Shown: positions 4,186-41,814 of the stretch, one piece after another
How positions within the stretch are numbered: the first letter of the stretch is position 1
Layout: each line of letters opens with the position of its first letter
Assembly: GCA_010405405.1 (NCBI GenBank)
Contig: MU004233.1
Coordinates: 2,644,539 to 2,708,538, forward strand
Origin: Microthyrium microscopicum
Lineage: Eukaryota
Length of the DNA stretch: 64,000 nucleotides
Reading direction: 5' to 3'
Program-made: the position numbers and the translations under genes
Notes under the pieces: model-generated
Told to the model about the DNA's origin: nothing
Databases searched by the model: none
Seen by the model: only the letters and a program-made list of their open reading frames with translations

Positions 4186-5686
4186 CCGCCCAAATCAACA
4201 GAGGCTAATGCAGCAAAATTCCCACACCACCATCAACCACTTTATTTTGTGTCAGAATACTCCAAACCCTTGCCTTTCCACAAACTGTGAGGCAAGATAG
4301 AAGAGCCGAATTGAAAAAGTGCACAGAAAGGAAGATAACATTCAGGCCTCCTCATCAGGCCCCTTCACCGCCCGCCGTCAATCGGAAACTTTCTTCAAAG
4401 ATCCTTGATTCTTGCATTTGTGTGTTGGCCCATTTGGCCGCGTCCAACGCCATAGCCGCCAGAAAATTCCCAAAAAAAAAGAAGATGAATGACCAACTCT
4501 CCCAAAGAAAATGAAAAAGCGGCTGGTTTTTGGCGCTATGCTCTGCGAAATGCTAACATCCTATCCACTAACCAGACAAATCGTCTCTGTTACACAGCAC
4601 AAGTACACTTCGAGAAGACACACTGGACCGTGCAGCTCAAGTGACGCCTACATTTCCAATGAGATGTCGACCATTTTTGTCCAAACTACCAGAAATAGAA
4701 ATGTACATTGTCTCGGAAAACGACCCAATCCATAGACTTGGAAAGCGGGTGCCTTATCCGAGTCATTTGTGTACATCAAGTGCAAGTTACACAGATTCAG
4801 AGAAAGACTACACAACGTCGTTCAGAACATAGAGTACATCCACAACAAATACCCGCGATATCAATGACCAAGGGCGAAAGCAGTTGACCAGTTCAACATG
4901 CAAGCCTCTCTCGCCTACAGTACTCTGCTATTACTTTCTTAGTTAGCAGAAGGATTCACCAAGTTTTGCTGCTAATGTCTGTGCAACCGATGTGATAGAG
5001 TAGCTGCATGCCCCACACCTAACCGCCAGTTTACACTATCAAAATTTCGAATCCCCACCCGCGAATTCAAGTCAACGACACGACGAATTGTTGAGAGAAT
5101 TGACTTGATATTCCCATTAATCCATTCCAGGTCTAAGCCCCACTGGTCAATTGCCAATTAGTTCGGACAAGGCCGGTCCCATACCGCTGGGTCCATCTAA
5201 GTAAGGTAGAGTAGTAGCTAAGGCCTATTTCGCTTTTATTCCTCGCTCGTCAGCCCACTGATAAAAATGCAATAATCCCAAACAGTCTGCGTGCTTCTGC
5301 AGCCTGTGTCCCCGGGATCACTCAGCACCGAGGCCCTCCAGAAAGTGAAAGGAAAAAAACAACAATCCCGGTTTTTGCTCCAATGGCACTGGCCAATATC
5401 CCATCAATTGTCCATCTGATCGCTTGACCAGCCAGAAAGAACCTCGTCATCCAGTATTTTGTGCAGAAAGACATTGCAGTCGTGTTTTTTTTCCCGCTTT
5501 AACTGGTGTTGATCGAAAGCATTTCCCAGTTAAACGCGGCATAAACCGACCAGCCATGATTTGCAGAAAATCATCCGCCGTTGTGCTTTTTTAAACCAAT
5601 TGACTCTTTTCTCTGATCCGAGCTAAAGCGTTCGTAGAGTGCATGTGGGCAATTATAGCCGACTTCAAATCGTGGCTTTTTCCTGT

Positions 5687-7358
5687 TCAAACAAACCAAG
5701 CTCTTCCCACTAGCATACACGCAACGATCATCAACCCAAGCGCCAACGTACTCTGCATGCAGGTTTCGGTCCGGAATGGCCAGAATCGTGGCAGCCGTGA
5801 TAGCAGATTGGATCGGCCTTGACTGAGCCATTCCCAGAGAGGCCAACTTGGTCGTTCGGTACCAGAGACTTTGCGAATAATCTTGGCAGGGCTTCCATAT
5901 GCGAGATGATATGCTGGTATATCCTTCATACCAGTCAGCTGGATAGATTTTCTCCAAAAAAAAAAACAAGGCCCGCAACGAAGGGGAAATTTTGGAGCAA
6001 AAAGAGAAAACGAGACAAGGGGGGTGGGATCCCTTGGTTAAGGATTATGGTCGAAAGACCAGATTCTCCCAAATAAATCCCACGAGACAAGGCTGAGATC
6101 GTAGCAAAGTGTATTGGGAGTGTGATACGAGTTTGTATGGTAGTACCAGGGAGTGAACTTTGACGGATGTACGAGATCACGCCGCACCCTCCCCTTGGCA
6201 ACATGACAGACGGGTACTTGCCGCGAATAGGGAAATGGGAGAAAATTGAAGAGGGAATTATGCAGGATGGAAATCCAGAAAACTCACCTTAGTAATAAGG
6301 CTATTTGCGCCAATGACGCAGCCTTTACCAACATTAACACCTCCGAGAATGGTAACATGCCCTCCTATCCAGCAGTCGTCCTCGATCGTGACATCCATTC
6401 CGAAGCTGGGAGCACCTGCAGGTCCATTACGAAGCGTATGGTCTGGAACATGGGTCAGCGGTGAGGTTGACAAGACACAGATCAAAGAAATATCGAAGAC
6501 ATATCAGAAGGGTAGGAATTAATATTCCAGATTGACGCTTGGGAAGCAAGGATGTGTGATGTGCTGCAAGCAATGGATCAATCTGCAAGAAATGATTCAA
6601 ACAGACCAATGAACCTAAACAAAATCCCCGCAAAAGGGAAAAAAGGTGCAAGGCAAAAAGCAAAACACCAAGGTCTGTCAAATGTTGCTCGCGAGATCCT
6701 AATTCGACTTACCAAGTGGATGACCAACGGCATATATTGAAAAGTCTGGGCCGATCAAGCAACGTTCGCCGATCCGAACGCTTCGTACTGGAGTGTCGAG
6801 GATTTTGCAACCTCTGTTGATGAAGGTAGATGTCGCAATGTCAACACATGAACCATAGTCAACGTGGAGAGGCGGTTTGATGTAAGGGGCGAGCCCTTGA
6901 CCTGGGAACCGCTTGGGTTGAGGAAAAGTATCCGACGGCGCAGTTGAGGCTGGAGTCGAGGTCGTTGACTCGCTGCACTCTGAACTGGGGTCTGATGTCG
7001 CGGCATCGGGAGAGCTTCCGGCGGCAGGGAGGTTCAAGGCTGGCAGTGGGGAAGCCAGTGGAGGAGTGGACAGTGTTGGTCCAGCTTTGAACTGCAGCTG
7101 GGATTGGCCCGCGTTGATGATACTGTATTGGTGAGCTGGTTAGCATTTGGACACGTCTAGAGACAAGGCAGCTGCACTGCTGCAGATGGATCTATGGAAG
7201 CCTTGAACTTACGCGTGGTAGAGAGCTGCACGCTGCTCGGCGGATGCCTCTTCACCCTGTGAGTTGTAGTCTTGACATGCAATGGCGGCACGTAGCCTTG
7301 CAGCGCGGTAGTCCTGGTTGCCGGCCGGGAATTCGGTTCTCTGTTTGTAAGGTGCCAT
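5687..7358 (-). CDS. Maltose/galactoside O-acetyltransferase-like LbH hexapeptide protein; introns 7123-7212, 6443-6712, 5924-6287
   Basis: Spliced product contains PPLHVDYG, FINRGCKILD, VTIEDDCWIGGHVTILGGVNVGKGCVIGANSLITKDIPAYHLAYGSPAKIIR. Splice phases checked. Confidence 0.88.
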
Positions 7359-7973
7359 GGAAGATGATTTGTAGATCACCGAGGCACGGAGAGGAAGGTA
7401 ATGTATAGCTATACGAGTGTGGAATGGCGAAGTTGTGTGGCCTTTTGGGCGCAATGCGATTTTTATAGGATTTGAGTAGTACAGCGGTGAAAGGAAAGGC
7501 AACACTTGGAATGGGATAATGTAACAGTTTCAATGCCAAGTAAAAGAACCGACTAGTGTCGTAGAGAGTAAGTAGTTTGCAGTAAATAGCAAGATGGTGA
7601 ATGCGGATAGCTTTGAAGATACGGTTGGGGAAAGGCCTCTACTAAATGTGAGCGTTTGATAGCCGGAATTGAACCCCTTGATCTGCTGGCCACTGTTCTT
7701 TGCTCTTTGCTGTTCCTTGGTGCGGCACTATGGGCAGCGGGCCGTACAGTACATTACAGAGGTACTGCGAGACAGCCTCGTGCATATCAGCCATGAGATG
7801 TCCGCTAAAGGGTCTAAGACGATCGACTATTAGTCTCTCCCTTGCCGAACTTGGATCTCTAGTCTACTCACCCAACATTTGTAAATTTCATTTATACCGG
7901 CCTCAATCCGCGTATCTCTTGCCTGCACGCAGTTGCCGAAGATCCTCTTGGTTTCTCTTTTTTTTATCCTTGT

Positions 7974-9487
7974 TCATCGTGGAACCATCTGATCTATCTG
8001 TACTCTCTTGTCTTCACCGGCACTGCCAATTCCTACCTCTTTATCCCAGAATACCGAGAAAACTTTGATGCCGTCTCCCGCTACTTTACGCTCGTCGTTT
8101 GCAATGCTCTCTCGTCGAATGACGTAGACACTTTCGCAAACTTGCCCAGTTCCTCCCACCGCAAGACCAGATGCTGATTTCCCATCCATTCGAACACTTC
8201 GTAAATCCCAGATTCTGCAAGTGCCATCGTGACTTGCACTGACAAGCCCCCAAGGCTTTTCTGGCTCAGCCGCAGCGCTGACGATTGCACCGGCATGTCC
8301 TCGGAGGGTCAACCCGGTAACATCTCTTACATCAACACGAGGGTCAATCATGGCAATATGTCTAGCGCTAGTACCTGTAGCAAGTAACCCGAGATCCGGC
8401 ATTTCGGTAACGCATAGTAATGGATTGAGAAGGCGGCGGGTTGACACTTCGGCTCCAGTAACTAGATCCCATGTAACAAGGGTTTGATCCCACGAGGTAG
8501 AATAGCCAACCGTTGAATCTTTGGCAGAAAAGATGGCACCACTGACAGGACCAGTATGTCTTTTCAATAGGCTGAGAGGTCCTCGTTGTGGACCAGGCTG
8601 AAAGGCTGCTGATTGTTCAAGTTTCCTCCGTTTGGCTGCCCCAGGTAATGCACTTGGAAGCAGGGAATCGGGCGGCTGGGGACCTTCCGACTTCCGCGTA
8701 GACCATAGACCAACTGTGTGGTCTGAGGATCCAGATAGTATGCGAGAAGAGGGAGCATGCACAGAAATGCTGTCGACGCTCGATCGGTGGCCATAGAGGT
8801 CGAGAATTGGTGTAAAAGTACCTGAAACTTGCATCGAACCACCAGTGACACCATTTTCTTCGTATTTCCAGACACGCACGACTCTGTCACTGCCAGCAGA
8901 GACGATTTTGGATGTGGTCAGGAAACAGGCCGCATTGATCGGTTGGCCGGATGTGGGCTTGGAAACGGCAAGTAAATCCGAAGATTTTGACCACATTCGA
9001 ATAAGACCATCATAGCTAGCGGATAGAATTCTAGGATCTTTGATGGGAGAAGATGTGCCATCCTGATCCTGTAACAAGACTGACGATGTTTGTGAGACTA
9101 CATCGACAGCCGAGATCCAGTCCTCGTGCTCAAAAGAGACGACATGCGAGGGTGGAATCAAGGCCCTAACGTACTCGACTGAAAGAGTAACTTCGGAAGA
9201 GATGCCATTGGCTGTTAGAAATTCGTCGATGGTAGTGCGCAGGAATTGACCGTTGATCAAAAACTCAAATGGGATAGGCTTTTCATTTTCCAATAAATTG
9301 TTGACAAGAGTTGAAAGAGCAATTCTCCGGAGGCCTTACATGAAGTTAGGAAACTTAGCGTCATCAAAGAGATAGGAGGAGACATACCGGTGGACACAAG
9401 AATTGGGCCTGTATTCTCTGGTAACTTGATGGTTACGTCTGGGTCGCGCGACTCCAGCTGGATTCGGATTTGAGCGGTTTTGTCCAT
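7974..9487 (-). CDS. YTM1: Ribosome biogenesis WD40 protein Ytm1 (NLE domain + WD repeats); intron 9335-9387
   Basis: LRRIALSTLVNNLLENEKPIPFEFLINGQFLRT and FEHEDWISAVD followed by WD repeats. Confidence 0.95.
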
Positions 9488-36119: not shown

Positions 36120-36241
36120 TATCGCATATTTTCGAGTCTTTAATAGCTTCGAGCAGTTTGTAGGCAATTTGGACAGTAATTATAGGTTTTGAGTTGGTCT
36201 TAATTTCGTTTGATGAAAAGAGACTATCTGGTCATGTGATA

Positions 36242-36276
36242 TCGCGTCTTAGCGCGCTTCCAACGCGCCACGCGTA
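36242..36276 (+). promoter_or_regulatory. MCB-like CGCG cluster upstream of MSH3
   Basis: Four CGCG cores within 35 nt, including a perfect ACGCGT at 36270; MBF-type sites are typical of G1/S DNA repair genes. Confidence 0.55.
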
Positions 36277-36363
36277 AATTTGCTCTAACTTCGAATGTTC
36301 TTCACAGTGTAGTAGTGGGCAGCCATTAGATTTTCGCCATTTTGCGATACAGCTGCCATCAAA

Positions 36364-39300
36364 ATGGCCCCTAAAAGCCTTAAAGGGTCCTCACAGAACT
36401 CTTCCAATCAACGCTCCATATCGAGTTTCTTCACTCCTAAGCCCTCGCAGCCAAAACCACCGGCGCCACAAGATGCATCTGTGAACATGACGAACACCTT
36501 GACGATCGCTTCGATCCACAAGAAATCTACGAAACGGCAATCGGAGGATATCACCAGCGATGTCGAGAACGAACTGAGAAACAAGAAGAGAAAGACGGAC
36601 GTTGTGGCAGCATCACGATTTGTCTACTCTAGCACGCCTACCGCGGCAAGAACTGGCGCCGAAGCACTAGACCTGACGGAGGAGGACGAAGAGACGAAGG
36701 AGAAGAAAATGAAGCTGCACGAGCAATTTGTTGAGAAGTTGACACGTCCTAGAGAGGATTGGAGACGGCAGACAACTGAACATGAGGAGGAAGAGGCGCA
36801 AGACATGGAAGAAGAGGAAGAGCCACTTCCAAAATCTAGAAAGGGGAAGAAAAACTCCCTTACACCAATGGTTCAGCAATACCTCGACGTCAAAAGACAA
36901 AATCTCGACAAAATAATCGTCTTCGAAGTGGGTTATAAATTCCAGTTTTATGGCGAGGATGCTCGAGTTGCTGCGAAAGAGCTGAATATTGTCTGCATAC
37001 CGGGCGTTATGACATACGACAATGATCCACAAGGCCGTTTGGCAAGCGCATCAATTCCCGTTGGCAGACTGCCAGTTCACGTCAAGCGATTAGTAGCTGC
37101 AGGCCATAAAGTTGGTGTCGTCAAACAACTAGAAACCGCCGCCTTGAAAGCCGTAGGAGACAATCGAGGTGGTCCCTTCGTCCGCAAACTTACAAATGTC
37201 TACACGCAAGGTACATATATTGAAGATCCAGAGGCTGAAGAGGTAAGATTCCCATGTCTAAAACACATCCATCTATTTCTTCATGTAATTGATGATAACC
37301 AACGCACTCGTTGGCTTTTATCGCATCACGTGGCTTCTCTTATATCCAGTCCTATCCAAGACATCATGTTGAAGCCTGAAGCCTCGTATCATCTCAACGC
37401 TACAAGATATTGCGATAACAATCCATGGCTTCCGTACAACTCGGAGGCCCTTGAACCATCGCTGGCTTCTATAGGGAGATGCGATATTACGAAAGATCAT
37501 TTCATCCCATTAGAATTTGCTTGCCTTCGATATGGTCGATCATCTTACTGACGAGTCACAGGATGGCCCGGGAACTATTATCTGTTTGACCGAGACAATC
37601 TTGTCAAACAGGGTTCATGTAGGCATGGTTTCCGTGCAACCTACTACTGGATATATCATGTACGATGACTTTGATGATGAGTTCATGCGCAGTGAATTGG
37701 AGACGAGACTTCTTCATCTCACGCCTTGTGAATACCTTATTGTTGGATCACTATCAGATGAGACCAGGAAGATAGTAAAACATCTGTCCGGAAGCTCGCG
37801 ATCTGGAGTCAAGGCCCGAGTTGAAAATGTAACAAAGTCGAAAACGATGGTGGCGGAATCATTCAGCCACGTCTCTTCCTTCTATGCAAGCAAGTTTCAG
37901 CAGTCCGAAAACGAAGAACCCAACACCGCTCGTCAATATACCCTGGATCAGATCCACCAGCTTTCAGAACAGGTTACGATGTGTCTCTCCGCAATGATCA
38001 AACATCTGACGGAATACGGATTGCAACATGTGTTTGATCTCACCGTCAACTTCCAAAACTTCAGTACTCGAAACCACATGATGCTGAATGGCAATACCCT
38101 GAATTCCCTTGAGATTTATCATAATCAAACGGATCACGGCGCCAAGGGCAGTTTGTTTTGGCAACTTGACCGAACAAAAACACGCTTTGGCAAAAGACTT
38201 TTGCGAAAATGGATTGGAAGACCTTTACTTGATCAAGCCAGTCTAGAGGCTCGCATCAATGCAGTCCAAGAATTGAAAGATTCTGGCGGGTCGCGAGAAA
38301 ATGATCGCCTTCGGCGTGTACTCAAGGCCGCATCGAAATCCGACCTCGAGAAGATCCTCATACGTATCTACTACAAACGTGCCACTAGGAAGGAAGTGCT
38401 TTTACTCCTTCGAACCTTGCAAGCTATAGGAAATGAATTTGCTGGATCGAGCTATGAAGGGTTCAGATCTGACACCGTCAATAATGCTGGCTCCTCCATT
38501 GCACAGATCACGACATGTGTCACAGAGTTTCTTGACAGGGTTCGCTGGCGTTCAGAGAACGAGGAAGATCTATACTCTTTTTTTAGGGAAGATTTTGAAT
38601 CGGAAGCAGTTACTGACCAGAAATGTCTTATTGCGGAAGTTGAGCATGATCTAGAACAGCATCGAGCCGAGGCAGCCTCAAAGCTAGGTCGACCTGTCAA
38701 TTTTGTTACGATCAGCGGAATAGAGTACTTGGTTGAAGTCGAAAACTCTAAAGCCCAGCTTGGGAAGGTTCCGGCTAGTTGGTTGAAGGTGAGCGGGACT
38801 AAAAAATCTTCCGTAAGTTTTTCCGCAGATCCGTCCTCGACCCAATGTGCTTACGTTGCGCGCAATCTGCTGAACACCATTATGGCGAAATGCTATACAA
38901 CGGACTAAAAAAACCAATGGCACCCTCCCATCAGAGGCGAAGGTTCCCACCATGGCTACTAAATAAGATATGATGTATTTGTCATCTTTACGAGATCTCA
39001 ACGCCTACTGGGTGATCAGTCACTCGATCCCGAGCCTGGTAGATGACGGAAACCGTTGTCGATGGAGTAAATCAGTTGTGTTTGTTTTGCCAGTCCGTTG
39101 CATAGCTTTTCGGCAGATTGGCAATTAGGATGTTCATCGGGGTGTTGAATAACACAACAGTCTATATGTCGAATCTAAACTGACAGATCCCAGCGATTTC
39201 ATACCCCTGAGGTAGTCAAAAGCATCCGACGAAGAGATCAATATAAAGAAAGTCTGGCCGAGGCTTGCGACATTGCCTTCACCCGATACCTGGAACAAAT

Positions 39301-40435
39301 CGGAGAATACTATCGACAATTTCGCGATTGTATTTTTGGCATCGCAACGCTGGACTGCCTTTTCAGCCTGGCCGAGATTGCCAATCAGCCAGGTTACTGT
39401 AAGCCGGATTTTTCCACAGGAGACCCTCATATCGAAATCAAGCAAGGGAGACATCCAATGGTAGAGCAGCTGCTTCTCGACAATTATGTTCCCAACGATA
39501 TCGATATAGGTCCTTCTGGAACAACAAATGCACTCCTCATTACTGGTCCCAACATGGGGGGAAAATCGTCCTATGTTCGGTCGATGTCTTTAATTTGCAT
39601 CATGGCCCAGATAGGTAAGTTGTTCCTCGTGCAAAAGTATCTTCATTTGATCTCATACCATTCTGTAACACCCATCATGCTCTAAGGCTTCCATAGACTG
39701 CGATGCATAGCATCAGAACCAGCATTTGCTCTGATGGATCTGTGGCGTAATATTGCACTAACACCCTCCTGCAGGCTCATTTGTTCCAGCCGATTCCGCC
39801 CGGCTAAGCTTATTAGATGGTGTTTACACTCGCATGGGGGCATTGGACAATATAATGAAGGGAGAAAGCACGTTCATGGTAGAACTTGGCGAGACTTCGC
39901 AAATCTTGAAGCAAGCTACGCGCCGCAGCCTAGTCATCCTTGACGAACTTGGTCGAGGCACGTCTACTATGGACGGTGTCGCCATAGCGGAAGCTGTCTT
40001 GCAGTTCCTGATCGACCGCGGCATCATGACCCTGTTTATCACGCACTATCAAGATCTGGCCAAGGTTGCTCTCGGAAACAAGAGCCTAAAAAATGTGCAT
40101 GTCAAATTCCGGGAGACCGACCAGGACAACGCTATAACGTTTCTCTATCAAATCTCAGGGGGAGTTGCCCATCGGAGCTATGGGTAAGTCGAAGCTAATA
40201 AGATTTTGATATAATAAATTTTCCGAACTAACACCATTAACCCAGACTGCACGTTGCTCGCCTTGCCAATATTCCGAGGTCTATTATCGAACTTGCCGCC
40301 GTCAAAAGCCGGGAATTGGAGATGAAAATAAGCCATCGGAGGGCTACTAACTTGGGAAAATTGGTAACTCAATTTCTTAGAGGAGAGTCGACTGCTGTAG
40401 AACGCTTATTATGTGCCTCAACTGAGGCAGGCTAG
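36364..40435 (+). CDS. MSH3: DNA mismatch repair protein Msh3; introns 37243-37561, 38813-39193, 39615-39774, 40184-40245
   Basis: [11 protein letters not shown]-box-like motif, [36 protein letters not shown] region, [18 protein letters not shown]. All splices in frame. Confidence 0.95.
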
Positions 40436-41814
40436 TAAGGACTTATACATGAAGTATTTACAAATAACATTATTCCCATTAGAACGGCTGATTTTCATGT
40501 CACAGAAATCTTATGCGAGTTATTAATGCCGTGACGTGAATACGTCAGTCAGTTGGTTCACGAAAGCTGCAGGTTAGAGAGATTAGAGGACTTGAACGCT
40601 TCCTCAGTATTCTCACGGACCATGTCGCGAAACTGGTATGTATGCGGCCACATACCCGACCTTCGTAACCTAGCAGTCGGCCTTGTGTTGCACACCCGAC
40701 TACCGAGATCCCAAAATAAATGAACGTGTAGTTGCGGCTGAACTTTATTTGTACATCTTGGTATCTTGCTAGTGTATTGTCTGATAAGGCTCATAGCCTT
40801 GTTCGGGCTAGTACCTACCATTTACGACAGAATGAACAGCCATACAAGCGTAGGTCAAGGATTATTGGCGTCGCGTTCCTGTTTATCAGCCTTATATATC
40901 TGCAGGATATTGAGCCGTCACCCTGCCATATCCCGACTAGGGGCAAAGTTTTATGCCACATCCTTGTCGAGCCGAAGTTTGTCAATATCAAAGTTCAAAA
41001 TACCAGCAAGATTTGATCATCTGCGGTGAGCTAGCTCTGGACTTCCATGGGATGGGAATATCGCCGTTGGATAACCTAAGGTCTAATTTTAACAACCATA
41101 TTCGCTACTCTGAGAGTGAGATGCAAGAGTTTTAGAAGCTGGGAAAAAGTGTGAGCTCGGAAAACCCACTCGTTTGGATATACTAAATGATGGGTTTGTA
41201 AATACATGACGCAAGAGTTCTTGGGTTCGGCGCTCATATAGATTCTCTCCGATTCTGCCTAGGCACTATGTGGATAAGAAGACAGACAGTCATTGGATGA
41301 CGGACATGATCGAACAGTGTCCAAGGGACCAAGCATGAACTAGATTAAGACGGTAGTGTGGTGCCAACGACTACTTCGCCCTAAAGCTTCCAAGAATAGG
41401 CCCTTCGAAAATGGTTCGGTAACGACTGAGAAGATCATAACATCGGTCGTGTACCGTTATATGGCAAATCTCCGACAATCTTCTCCCATGGTGCTAGCTT
41501 GCGGTCCAGTCGACCAATTGGGATGTCAACATTCCATCCCGGCATCGACTTTTGGTTCGTCGGGCTCTGGATACTTCCAGATAGTGAACTTTGTGTAGGG
41601 GTATTAGTGCCGCTGCGCAATATCTCGATCGGCTTGTGAATGAAATCCTAGGTGTTGTCCATATTAAGAGGTATAAAAGAGCTCTGTGCCATCCTCTTTT
41701 GAAGGTCCTCATTCAGTAAACATATCACATCGATAACATTCATTCTATAAATTCCTTGCAACACAACATCTGTTACCATTCAGACTCATTATTCTATCAC
41801 AATCATCTGATACA

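Follow-up and report, generated by a model that had tools for sequence, protein, structure and literature searches.

Inverted repeat in the long second intron of Microthyrium microscopicum MSH3, an intron found both spliced and retained in RNA

Introduction

When a long intron of a mismatch repair gene can fold back on itself, does the hairpin govern the splicing of that gene, or is it a remnant of the way in which the intron grew? We addressed this question for intron 2 of the MSH3 gene of the Dothideomycete Microthyrium microscopicum, located within a window of 64,000 nucleotides (NCBI GenBank assembly GCA_010405405.1, contig MU004233.1, positions 2,644,539 to 2,708,538 of the forward strand); all coordinates given here are positions in this window. 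An earlier note, made from the sequence alone, had described the intron as a long fold-back RNA with a mutually exclusive pairing beside the 5′ splice site, and had read it either as a structure-controlled splice switch tuning mutability or as an introner-like element. Our analysis led us, with middling confidence, to regard intron 2 as an ordinary U2-type MSH3 intron that carries a decayed single-copy inverted repeat, a relic at the DNA level, with slow splicing as the explanation of a retained RNA form.

Regular fungal introns measure 50-55 bp (PMC4457414), and MSH3 itself has one of 62 nt (intron 4), which makes the 381-nt intron 2 about seven times as long as usual. Among the papers listed for Microthyrium, nothing was seen on introns of MSH3 or on introners in M. 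microscopicum, although the supplements of introner surveys might list its genome.

Results

Spliced and retained forms of MSH3 intron 2

The RNA evidence consisted of the contigs of one run (X5), of unknown condition and without strand information; that this run contains RNA follows from the spliced contigs of MSH3 that it holds. Four joints were present in these contigs (37240>37560, 38812>39194, 39612>39773, and 40182>40245), all readable as GT..AG, and they confirmed the gene model together with the exact borders of intron 2, the second of the four RNA-supported introns, at whose joint 381 nt are skipped. The features of the gene and of intron 2 are as follows.

38813..39193, + strand: intron 2, 381 nt, phase 0; RNA joint 38812>39194, GT..AG
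38813..38818, + strand: 5′ splice site GTAAGT of intron 2, from the sequence and the RNA joint
39180..39184, + strand: putative branch site CTGAC of intron 2, with A39183, 10 nt before the 3′ end, assigned from its motif
39191..39193, + strand: 3′ splice site CAG of intron 2, from the sequence and the RNA joint
38906..38908, + strand: in-frame TAA reached upon retention of intron 2, after 31 extra codons; the open reading frame 37514-38908 ends there
36364..40435, + strand: MSH3 coding region, 5 exons, 1049 aa, stop codon at 40433-40435
37243..37561, + strand: intron 1, 319 nt, the control long intron; an RNA contig joins across it; GT..AG
39615..39774, + strand: intron 3, 160 nt, RNA-supported
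40184..40245, + strand: intron 4, 62 nt, RNA-supported

Intron 2 is a spliceosomal U2-type intron, with GTAAGT, CTGAC, and CAG as its signals and an exact removal that restores the 1049-aa frame. A second X5 contig of 441 nt ran unbroken from 38783 to 39223 and comprised the whole of intron 2 flanked by 30 nt of exon at either end. The depths in X5, which are means and a poor measure of level, were 152.5 for the joint-spanning contig, 176.5 for the contig keeping intron 2, and 147.1 and 332.3 for the exon contigs upstream and downstream, respectively. No unspliced pieces of introns 1, 3, and 4 were found among the X5 contigs, in which those introns occurred only in spliced form; since contigs drop rare variants, their unspliced forms may exist at a low level. 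RNA cover was zero at 37376-37522, wholly inside intron 1, and at both intergenic ends (36200-36346 and 40463-40600), which makes DNA carry-over an unlikely source of the intron 2 contig. In this RNA run, intron 2 is thus the only MSH3 intron with an unspliced form abundant enough for assembly, and the presence of both of its RNA forms in one run is new here. The retained form fits the idea that intron 2 is spliced differently from the other introns.

Intron retention with a premature stop, in which unproductive splicing is combined with nonsense-mediated decay (NMD), is the commonest alternative splicing in fungi. The retained form of intron 2 resembles this scheme in having an in-frame stop 31 codons into the intron, and the stop that the earlier note had placed at 38906 was found there as TAA at 38906-38908. 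The product of the unspliced RNA would comprise 741 aa (710 + 31) and would lack the MutS_V ATPase domain, and the retained RNA is a likely target of NMD. The difference from the known scheme is that neither regulation nor decay of the retained form was among our observations.

Position of the intron within MSH3

Joining the exons at the RNA-supported joints yielded 1049 open codons from 36364 to 40435. Pfam placed MutS_I in exon 1 and MutS_II and MutS_III in exon 2; MutS_III ended and MutS_V began in exon 3, with MutS_V also in exon 4. Exon 2 was 100% identical to a 1049-aa protein that NCBI assigns to Microthyrium microscopicum, and apart from this protein the next relatives were MSH3 proteins at only 54-60% identity. 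The description of a 381-nt second intron of MSH3 was therefore borne out by the RNA joint 38812>39194, the MutS domains, and the open spliced frame.

All four MSH3 introns had GTAAG donors and CAG acceptors, and in each a CTGAC or CTAAC motif preceded the end by 10-15 nt. Intron 2 lies in phase 0 between S710 and R711, within a conserved block (VPASW.K.SGTKK.SRFHTPEV) that held eleven invariant residues among 14 aligned MSH3 proteins, in agreement with the earlier claim that the intron interrupts the SGTKKS-SRFHTPEV region. Inspection of intron 2 by eye revealed no nested donors of the kind found in stwintrons and no extra branch sites. In the acidic-repeat part of exon 1, a GAA/GAG-rich stretch (36784-36822) matched another, more deeply covered contig in DNA and RNA runs with 4 mismatches and 3 gaps, which is probably a low-complexity coincidence.

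Stems and predicted fold of intron 2

The arms of the fold-back and the spacer between them occupy the following positions.

38863..38874, + strand: left outer arm, pairing 12/12 with 39109-39120 including one G-U; repeat I3
38892..38917, + strand: left inner arm, a 15-nt core (38892-38906) with an A-rich extension; repeat I1
38918..39080, + strand: spacer between the arms, 163 nt, with local hairpins only
39081..39106, + strand: right inner arm, partner of 38892-38917
39109..39120, + strand: right outer arm, partner of 38863-38874

Both stems proposed earlier were present at every coordinate: the core 38892-38906 paired with 39092-39106 at 14 of 15 positions, with a mismatch of A38897 and C39101, and the outer arms paired at all 12 positions, with the G-U at 38871/39112. 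The inner stem is lengthened to 38917/39081 by the A-rich extension and its U-rich counterpart. A repeat search recovered the inner arms as a 41-nt inverted repeat (I1) that is 78% complementary with its arms 163 nt apart, and the outer arms as I3. In the partition function, the pair probability was 0.85-1.0 for the inner stem and 0.39-0.84 for the outer stem, and the predicted duplex energy of both arms together was -42.5 to -44.6 kcal/mol.

The region of the right outer arm (39112-39125) was also complementary at 13 of 14 positions to a stretch of exon 3 (39377-39390; repeat I2), which gives this arm a third possible partner in unspliced RNA. An exact 11-nt direct repeat (D3), GGACTAAAAAA, was located at 38796-38806 and 38902-38912; the first copy lies in exon 2 just before the donor, and the second, which includes the in-frame TAA, sits where the left inner arm ends.

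Strength of the fold-back against chance

The comparison with shuffled controls gave a divided result. The whole intron had a minimum free energy (MFE) of -104.6 kcal/mol, for a z of -1.16; folds as good came from 17 of 100 shuffles, a modest result for the fold as a whole. The pairing of the 5′ half with the 3′ half was strong by comparison (-95.8 kcal/mol; z -4.4), with none of 300 dinucleotide shuffles as good. The sub-region 38855-39128 reached z -2.95 with none of 200 shuffles as good, its bounds having been chosen after the stems had been seen. In a local alignment of intron 2 with its own reverse complement, the score of 38 was reached by 4 of 1000 dinucleotide shuffles.

Real DNA of the same window provided a more demanding background. 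When the half-against-half energy was compared with 995 window tiles after regression on GC content, intron 2 stood at z -1.8, and 20 tiles were as extreme. Among 670 overlapping 381-nt tiles, an inverted-repeat score of at least 38 was found at two other places, 2389-2433 and 39409-39524. The fold-back is real and ranks among about the most extreme 2% of its own background, and it is no statistical singularity for a scan of 64 kb; its excess over chance is only moderate.

The two other places deserve a description of their own. The segment 39409-39524, in the coding part of MSH3 exon 3, is a 116-nt gapped imperfect palindrome with a score of 41, higher than the 38 of intron 2. The segment 2389-2433 is a 45-nt near-perfect palindrome, GCAGCCGCCAAT...ATTGGTGGCTGC, whose score of 38 equals that of intron 2.

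Intron 1 had a fold-back tendency as well. Its fold reached z -2.75 (2 of 100 shuffles as good), and its half-against-half pairing, at z -2.5 with 4 of 200 shuffles as good, was weaker than that of intron 2. In the MFE structure of intron 1, a stretch just upstream of its CTGAC branch site is taken up by pairing with the first 16 nt, in which the GTAAGA donor lies.

The competing fold and access to the splice sites

A switch between two folds had been proposed on the basis of one further segment.

38821..38830, + strand: proposed competing segment, pairing with 38865-38874 at 9 of 10 positions, with an internal C-U mismatch

This pairing stood as far as complementarity is concerned, but the claim that two folds compete was not supported. 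The pair probability of 38821-38830 with 38865-38874 was 0.05-0.10 when the intron was folded by itself and 0.03 when exon flanks were included, the duplex energy was -9.7 kcal/mol versus about -43 kcal/mol for the long-range arms, and the pairing was absent from the MFE structure of the nascent RNA 38813-39080. When the upstream linker was shuffled 5000 times, 2.7% of the shuffles yielded an alternative as stable as this one. As a switch of the type known from the yeast gene RPL7B, the two pairings are mutually exclusive on paper, and their predicted stabilities are very unequal.

Occlusion of the 5′ splice site was considered as a cause of retention and rejected. The predicted accessibility of this site in intron 2 (0.26-0.62, varying with flank length) was no lower than in introns 1 and 4 (0.12-0.25), and its pairing partners changed with the length of the flanks. 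A shortening of the span from the 5′ splice site to the branch site beyond chance was likewise rejected for MFE structures: the predicted graph distance was 17, as against 17.2 ± 10.7 in shuffles, 53% of which were as short. Such shortening is accordingly an in silico property of any sequence of this size.

Symmetry at the DNA level, copy number, and relatives

The antisense strand of intron 2 folded better than the sense strand (-121.2 kcal/mol, z -3.95, none of 100 shuffles as good, versus z -1.16), which points to symmetry at the DNA level. The arms differ by four transition mismatches, of which one becomes a G-U pair in sense RNA and three do so in antisense RNA, as read from the alignments and with the reservation that these are small numbers. 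Neither the strand comparison nor the mismatch pattern revealed a sign of selection on the structure as sense RNA. Both are what a decaying inverted duplication at the DNA level would leave.

The intron appeared to be unique. A blastn search for a second copy in the 64-kb window returned only the intron's own two arms, with the next best match at E 2.9, and in three DNA runs no other contigs were found on the arms at 80% likeness or more, although this was not an exhaustive search of the genome. The absence of another copy from the window and the genome contigs argues against an active introner, and the proposal of an introner-like element failed the multi-copy test. The sole foreign match on intron 2 in the three DNA runs covered 25 nt (38909-38933) with one mismatch. 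In all three runs, the contig with this match also carried a 19-nt exact match to exon 2 (38749-38767), the two matches lying about 2.2 kb apart and in opposite orientation on that contig; two such matches on one contig look unlikely to have arisen by chance.

No match was found in Rfam 15 for 38600-39400 on either strand at E values up to 10, so that the fold-back belongs to no known RNA family, and no small nucleolar RNA (snoRNA) boxes were seen in intron 2 by eye. A miniature inverted-repeat transposable element (MITE) or another fold-back DNA transposon was tried as a candidate and set aside: the inverted repeat is present, but there were neither dispersed copies nor a convincing target-site duplication; the only candidate for the latter, TTA (38851-38853 and 39125-39127), does not directly adjoin the left arm.

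A scan of metagenomes with the MSH3 alignment and the patterns TGPNMGGK and GESTFMVE yielded 80 loci, 79 of which matched at 28-46% identity in the best segment. The one remaining locus, on an eukaryote-like metagenome contig (L001), was the only one of the 80 with the look of an MSH3 relative; it was encoded in one continuous frame (positions 5001-8027) with 48% identity over residues 16-962 and had no intron at any of the four MSH3 intron positions or elsewhere in that span; being intronless, it says nothing about the stems.

Comparison with known structured introns

Zipper stems occur in long introns of Saccharomyces cerevisiae, including those of RPS17B and RPL7A, and are defined by a total linker of 42-85 nt along the path from the 5′ splice site through the stem to the branch point, a range derived for the S. 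cerevisiae spliceosome; in RPL28, zipper-stem variants lowered the retained-intron fraction (PMC12350175). The predicted outer stem of MSH3 intron 2 agrees with such stems in position and length, with 12 bp and distances of 50 nt to 38813 and 63 nt to A39183, but its total linker of about 103-112 nt (44-50 plus 59-62) exceeds the range of 42-85 nt. Further differences are that the MSH3 host is a filamentous ascomycete, in which long introns are exceptional, that the stem is only predicted here, and that the predicted shortening of distance is no better than in shuffles.

Intron 1 of RPL7B carries a zipper-stem splicing enhancer together with a mutually exclusive alternative structure that is conserved and bound by protein (bioRxiv 10.1101/2025.03.14.643126). 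The likeness to MSH3 intron 2 lies in a long-range stem and an alternative pairing that uses one strand of that stem, as the earlier note had proposed. The MSH3 alternative, in contrast, is a 9/10 duplex of low probability (0.03-0.10), and whereas RPL7B depends on its stem because its branch site is weak, the branch site of MSH3 intron 2 is near consensus (CTGAC).

Introner-like elements (ILEs) of Dothideomycetes degenerate quickly until they are indistinguishable from regular introns (PMC3609843, PMC4457414). Intron 2 resembles ILEs as these sources portray them in its Dothideomycete host, in a length well above that of regular introns (381 nt versus 50-55 bp), in canonical splice signals, and, less clearly, in a stable predicted structure, the latter graded by z -1.16 for the whole fold, z -4.4 for half-against-half pairing in shuffles, and z -1.8 among window tiles. 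[quoted passage not shown]

The symmetrical introns and stwintrons of Hypoxylaceae have terminal inverted repeats, form sister families, are nested in many cases, and share a conserved WTTCTAGAAA palindrome (PMC8469720). In common with them, intron 2 has imperfect inverted repeats of 45-55 nt with about 73% identity, about 100 nt apart, inside a spliceosomal intron, without an Rfam match and without flanking duplications. It differs in that its arms are internal, set back from the intron ends by 43-50 nt and 68-73 nt, and in that it is a single copy. The WTTCTAGAAA palindrome was not seen in the sequence of intron 2.

Discussion

The reading that we favour, with the middling confidence expressed at the outset, begins at the DNA level. 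About the middle 270 nt of intron 2 (38856-39125) would be a decayed single-copy inverted repeat, which might have originated when palindromic or fold-back DNA, for instance a degenerate introner or mobile element, inserted there, or by a local inverted duplication, and the host intron would once have been shorter, roughly 110 nt, before this expansion. Selection on the sense RNA would have had no part in shaping the structure of the repeat. The arms may nevertheless zip up in the pre-mRNA at about -43 kcal/mol and loop out the centre, and an intron of such length and structure might be spliced at a lower rate than its neighbours; the retained form could thus reflect slow splicing and not regulation, would be non-productive, and would probably decay by NMD.

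Several points weigh against this account. As neither a transposon hallmark nor sister copies of the repeat were found, an insertion origin is not demonstrated, and a single RNA run supplied the contigs of the retained form. Intron 1 approaches intron 2 in length, resembles it in branch site, and has a fold-back tendency of its own, and yet was seen only spliced, so that length alone does not explain the retention of intron 2, to which a specific effect of its structure, or regulation, may contribute. Plain chance may also account for the repeat, given that the score of 38 was met by 4 of 1000 shuffles and at two other places in the window.

The behaviour of intron 1 is also what keeps alive the explanation that the fold-back is a selected cis-element, an enhancer or a brake, that sets the efficiency of intron 2 splicing, with retention and the premature stop controlling the level of MSH3 (MutSβ) and a trans factor or co-transcriptional kinetics possibly choosing the fold. 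We regard this explanation as unlikely, even though intron 2 was found in spliced and retained contigs while introns 1, 3, and 4 were found only spliced, the stems are predicted to be very stable, the half-against-half energy beat all 300 shuffles, and precedents of the same design are known from yeast RPL7B, with its mutually exclusive structures, and from the RPL28 zipper stem. What speaks against it is that the alternative pairing is weak (0.03-0.10; -9.7 versus about -43 kcal/mol) and absent from the MFE structure of nascent RNA, that the sense strand has no folding advantage over its antisense counterpart, that the graph distance of 17 equals that of shuffles, that accessibility of the 5′ splice site does not single out intron 2, and that the RNA data comprise one run and one condition. 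We assign a similarly low probability to the explanation in which complementarity arose by chance in a long intron, without history or effect, and retention is unrelated to it. The whole-intron fold (z -1.16, with 17 of 100 shuffles as good), the recurrence of a score of 38 in shuffles and at two other places in 64 kb, the 20 of 995 window tiles that were equally extreme in fold-back energy, and the finding that random sequences of the same composition close their ends equally well in silico are all in keeping with chance; the fold-back z of -4.4 with none of 300 dinucleotide shuffles as good, and the z of -2.95 for the chosen sub-region, are harder to reconcile with it, as are a repeat nearly centred in the intron (repeat centre near 38992, intron centre 39003) and arms of about 45-60 nt each with a shared indel pattern.

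Another source of the intronic cover would be a functional RNA hosted by intron 2, such as a snoRNA, a hairpin precursor of small RNA, or an antisense transcript, which would account for that cover instead of retention. The depth of the intronic contig, of the same order as that of the exons and a mean that could be dominated by the intron interior, would accommodate such an RNA, as would the antisense fold at z -3.95. This explanation is nonetheless very improbable: Rfam returned 0 matches at E values up to 10 on both strands, no box C/D or H/ACA arrangement was seen by eye, and the 441-nt contig was continuous and reached 30 nt into both exon 2 and exon 3, which indicates that reads cross both borders. 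Equally remote from our expectation is the most far-reaching version of control, in which the fold-back gates MSH3: splicing of intron 2 would require either a folded or a melted hairpin, with transcription speed, temperature, or a binding factor as the deciding influence; MutSβ would be lowered by the retained RNA; and a leaf-surface fungus would thereby tune the repair of insertion/deletion loops, and with it microsatellite mutability, post-transcriptionally. A switch that tunes mutability is pure inference, and although the idea of a switch is legitimate, its support here is limited to the co-occurrence of the hairpin and the retained form, and it is unproven.

For the biology of the fungus and its introns, the inverted repeat and the two RNA forms of intron 2 constitute a new case of two familiar categories: long introns with structure, and introns whose retention introduces a premature stop. 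Unless the stems are shown to matter by comparative or mutational data, the significance is modest, and a striking hairpin picked by eye turned out to rank no higher than about the top 2% when set against its own genomic background. If it were true that the stem sets the amount of productive MSH3 mRNA, this would represent a rare RNA-structure control of a mismatch repair gene and a zipper-type intron structure outside budding yeast. As a single example, intron 2 presents a long structured intron of a filamentous fungus that is spliced precisely and yet also persists unspliced, and it may be of use to work on fungal intron growth as a candidate for a degenerate introner or a fold-back relic.

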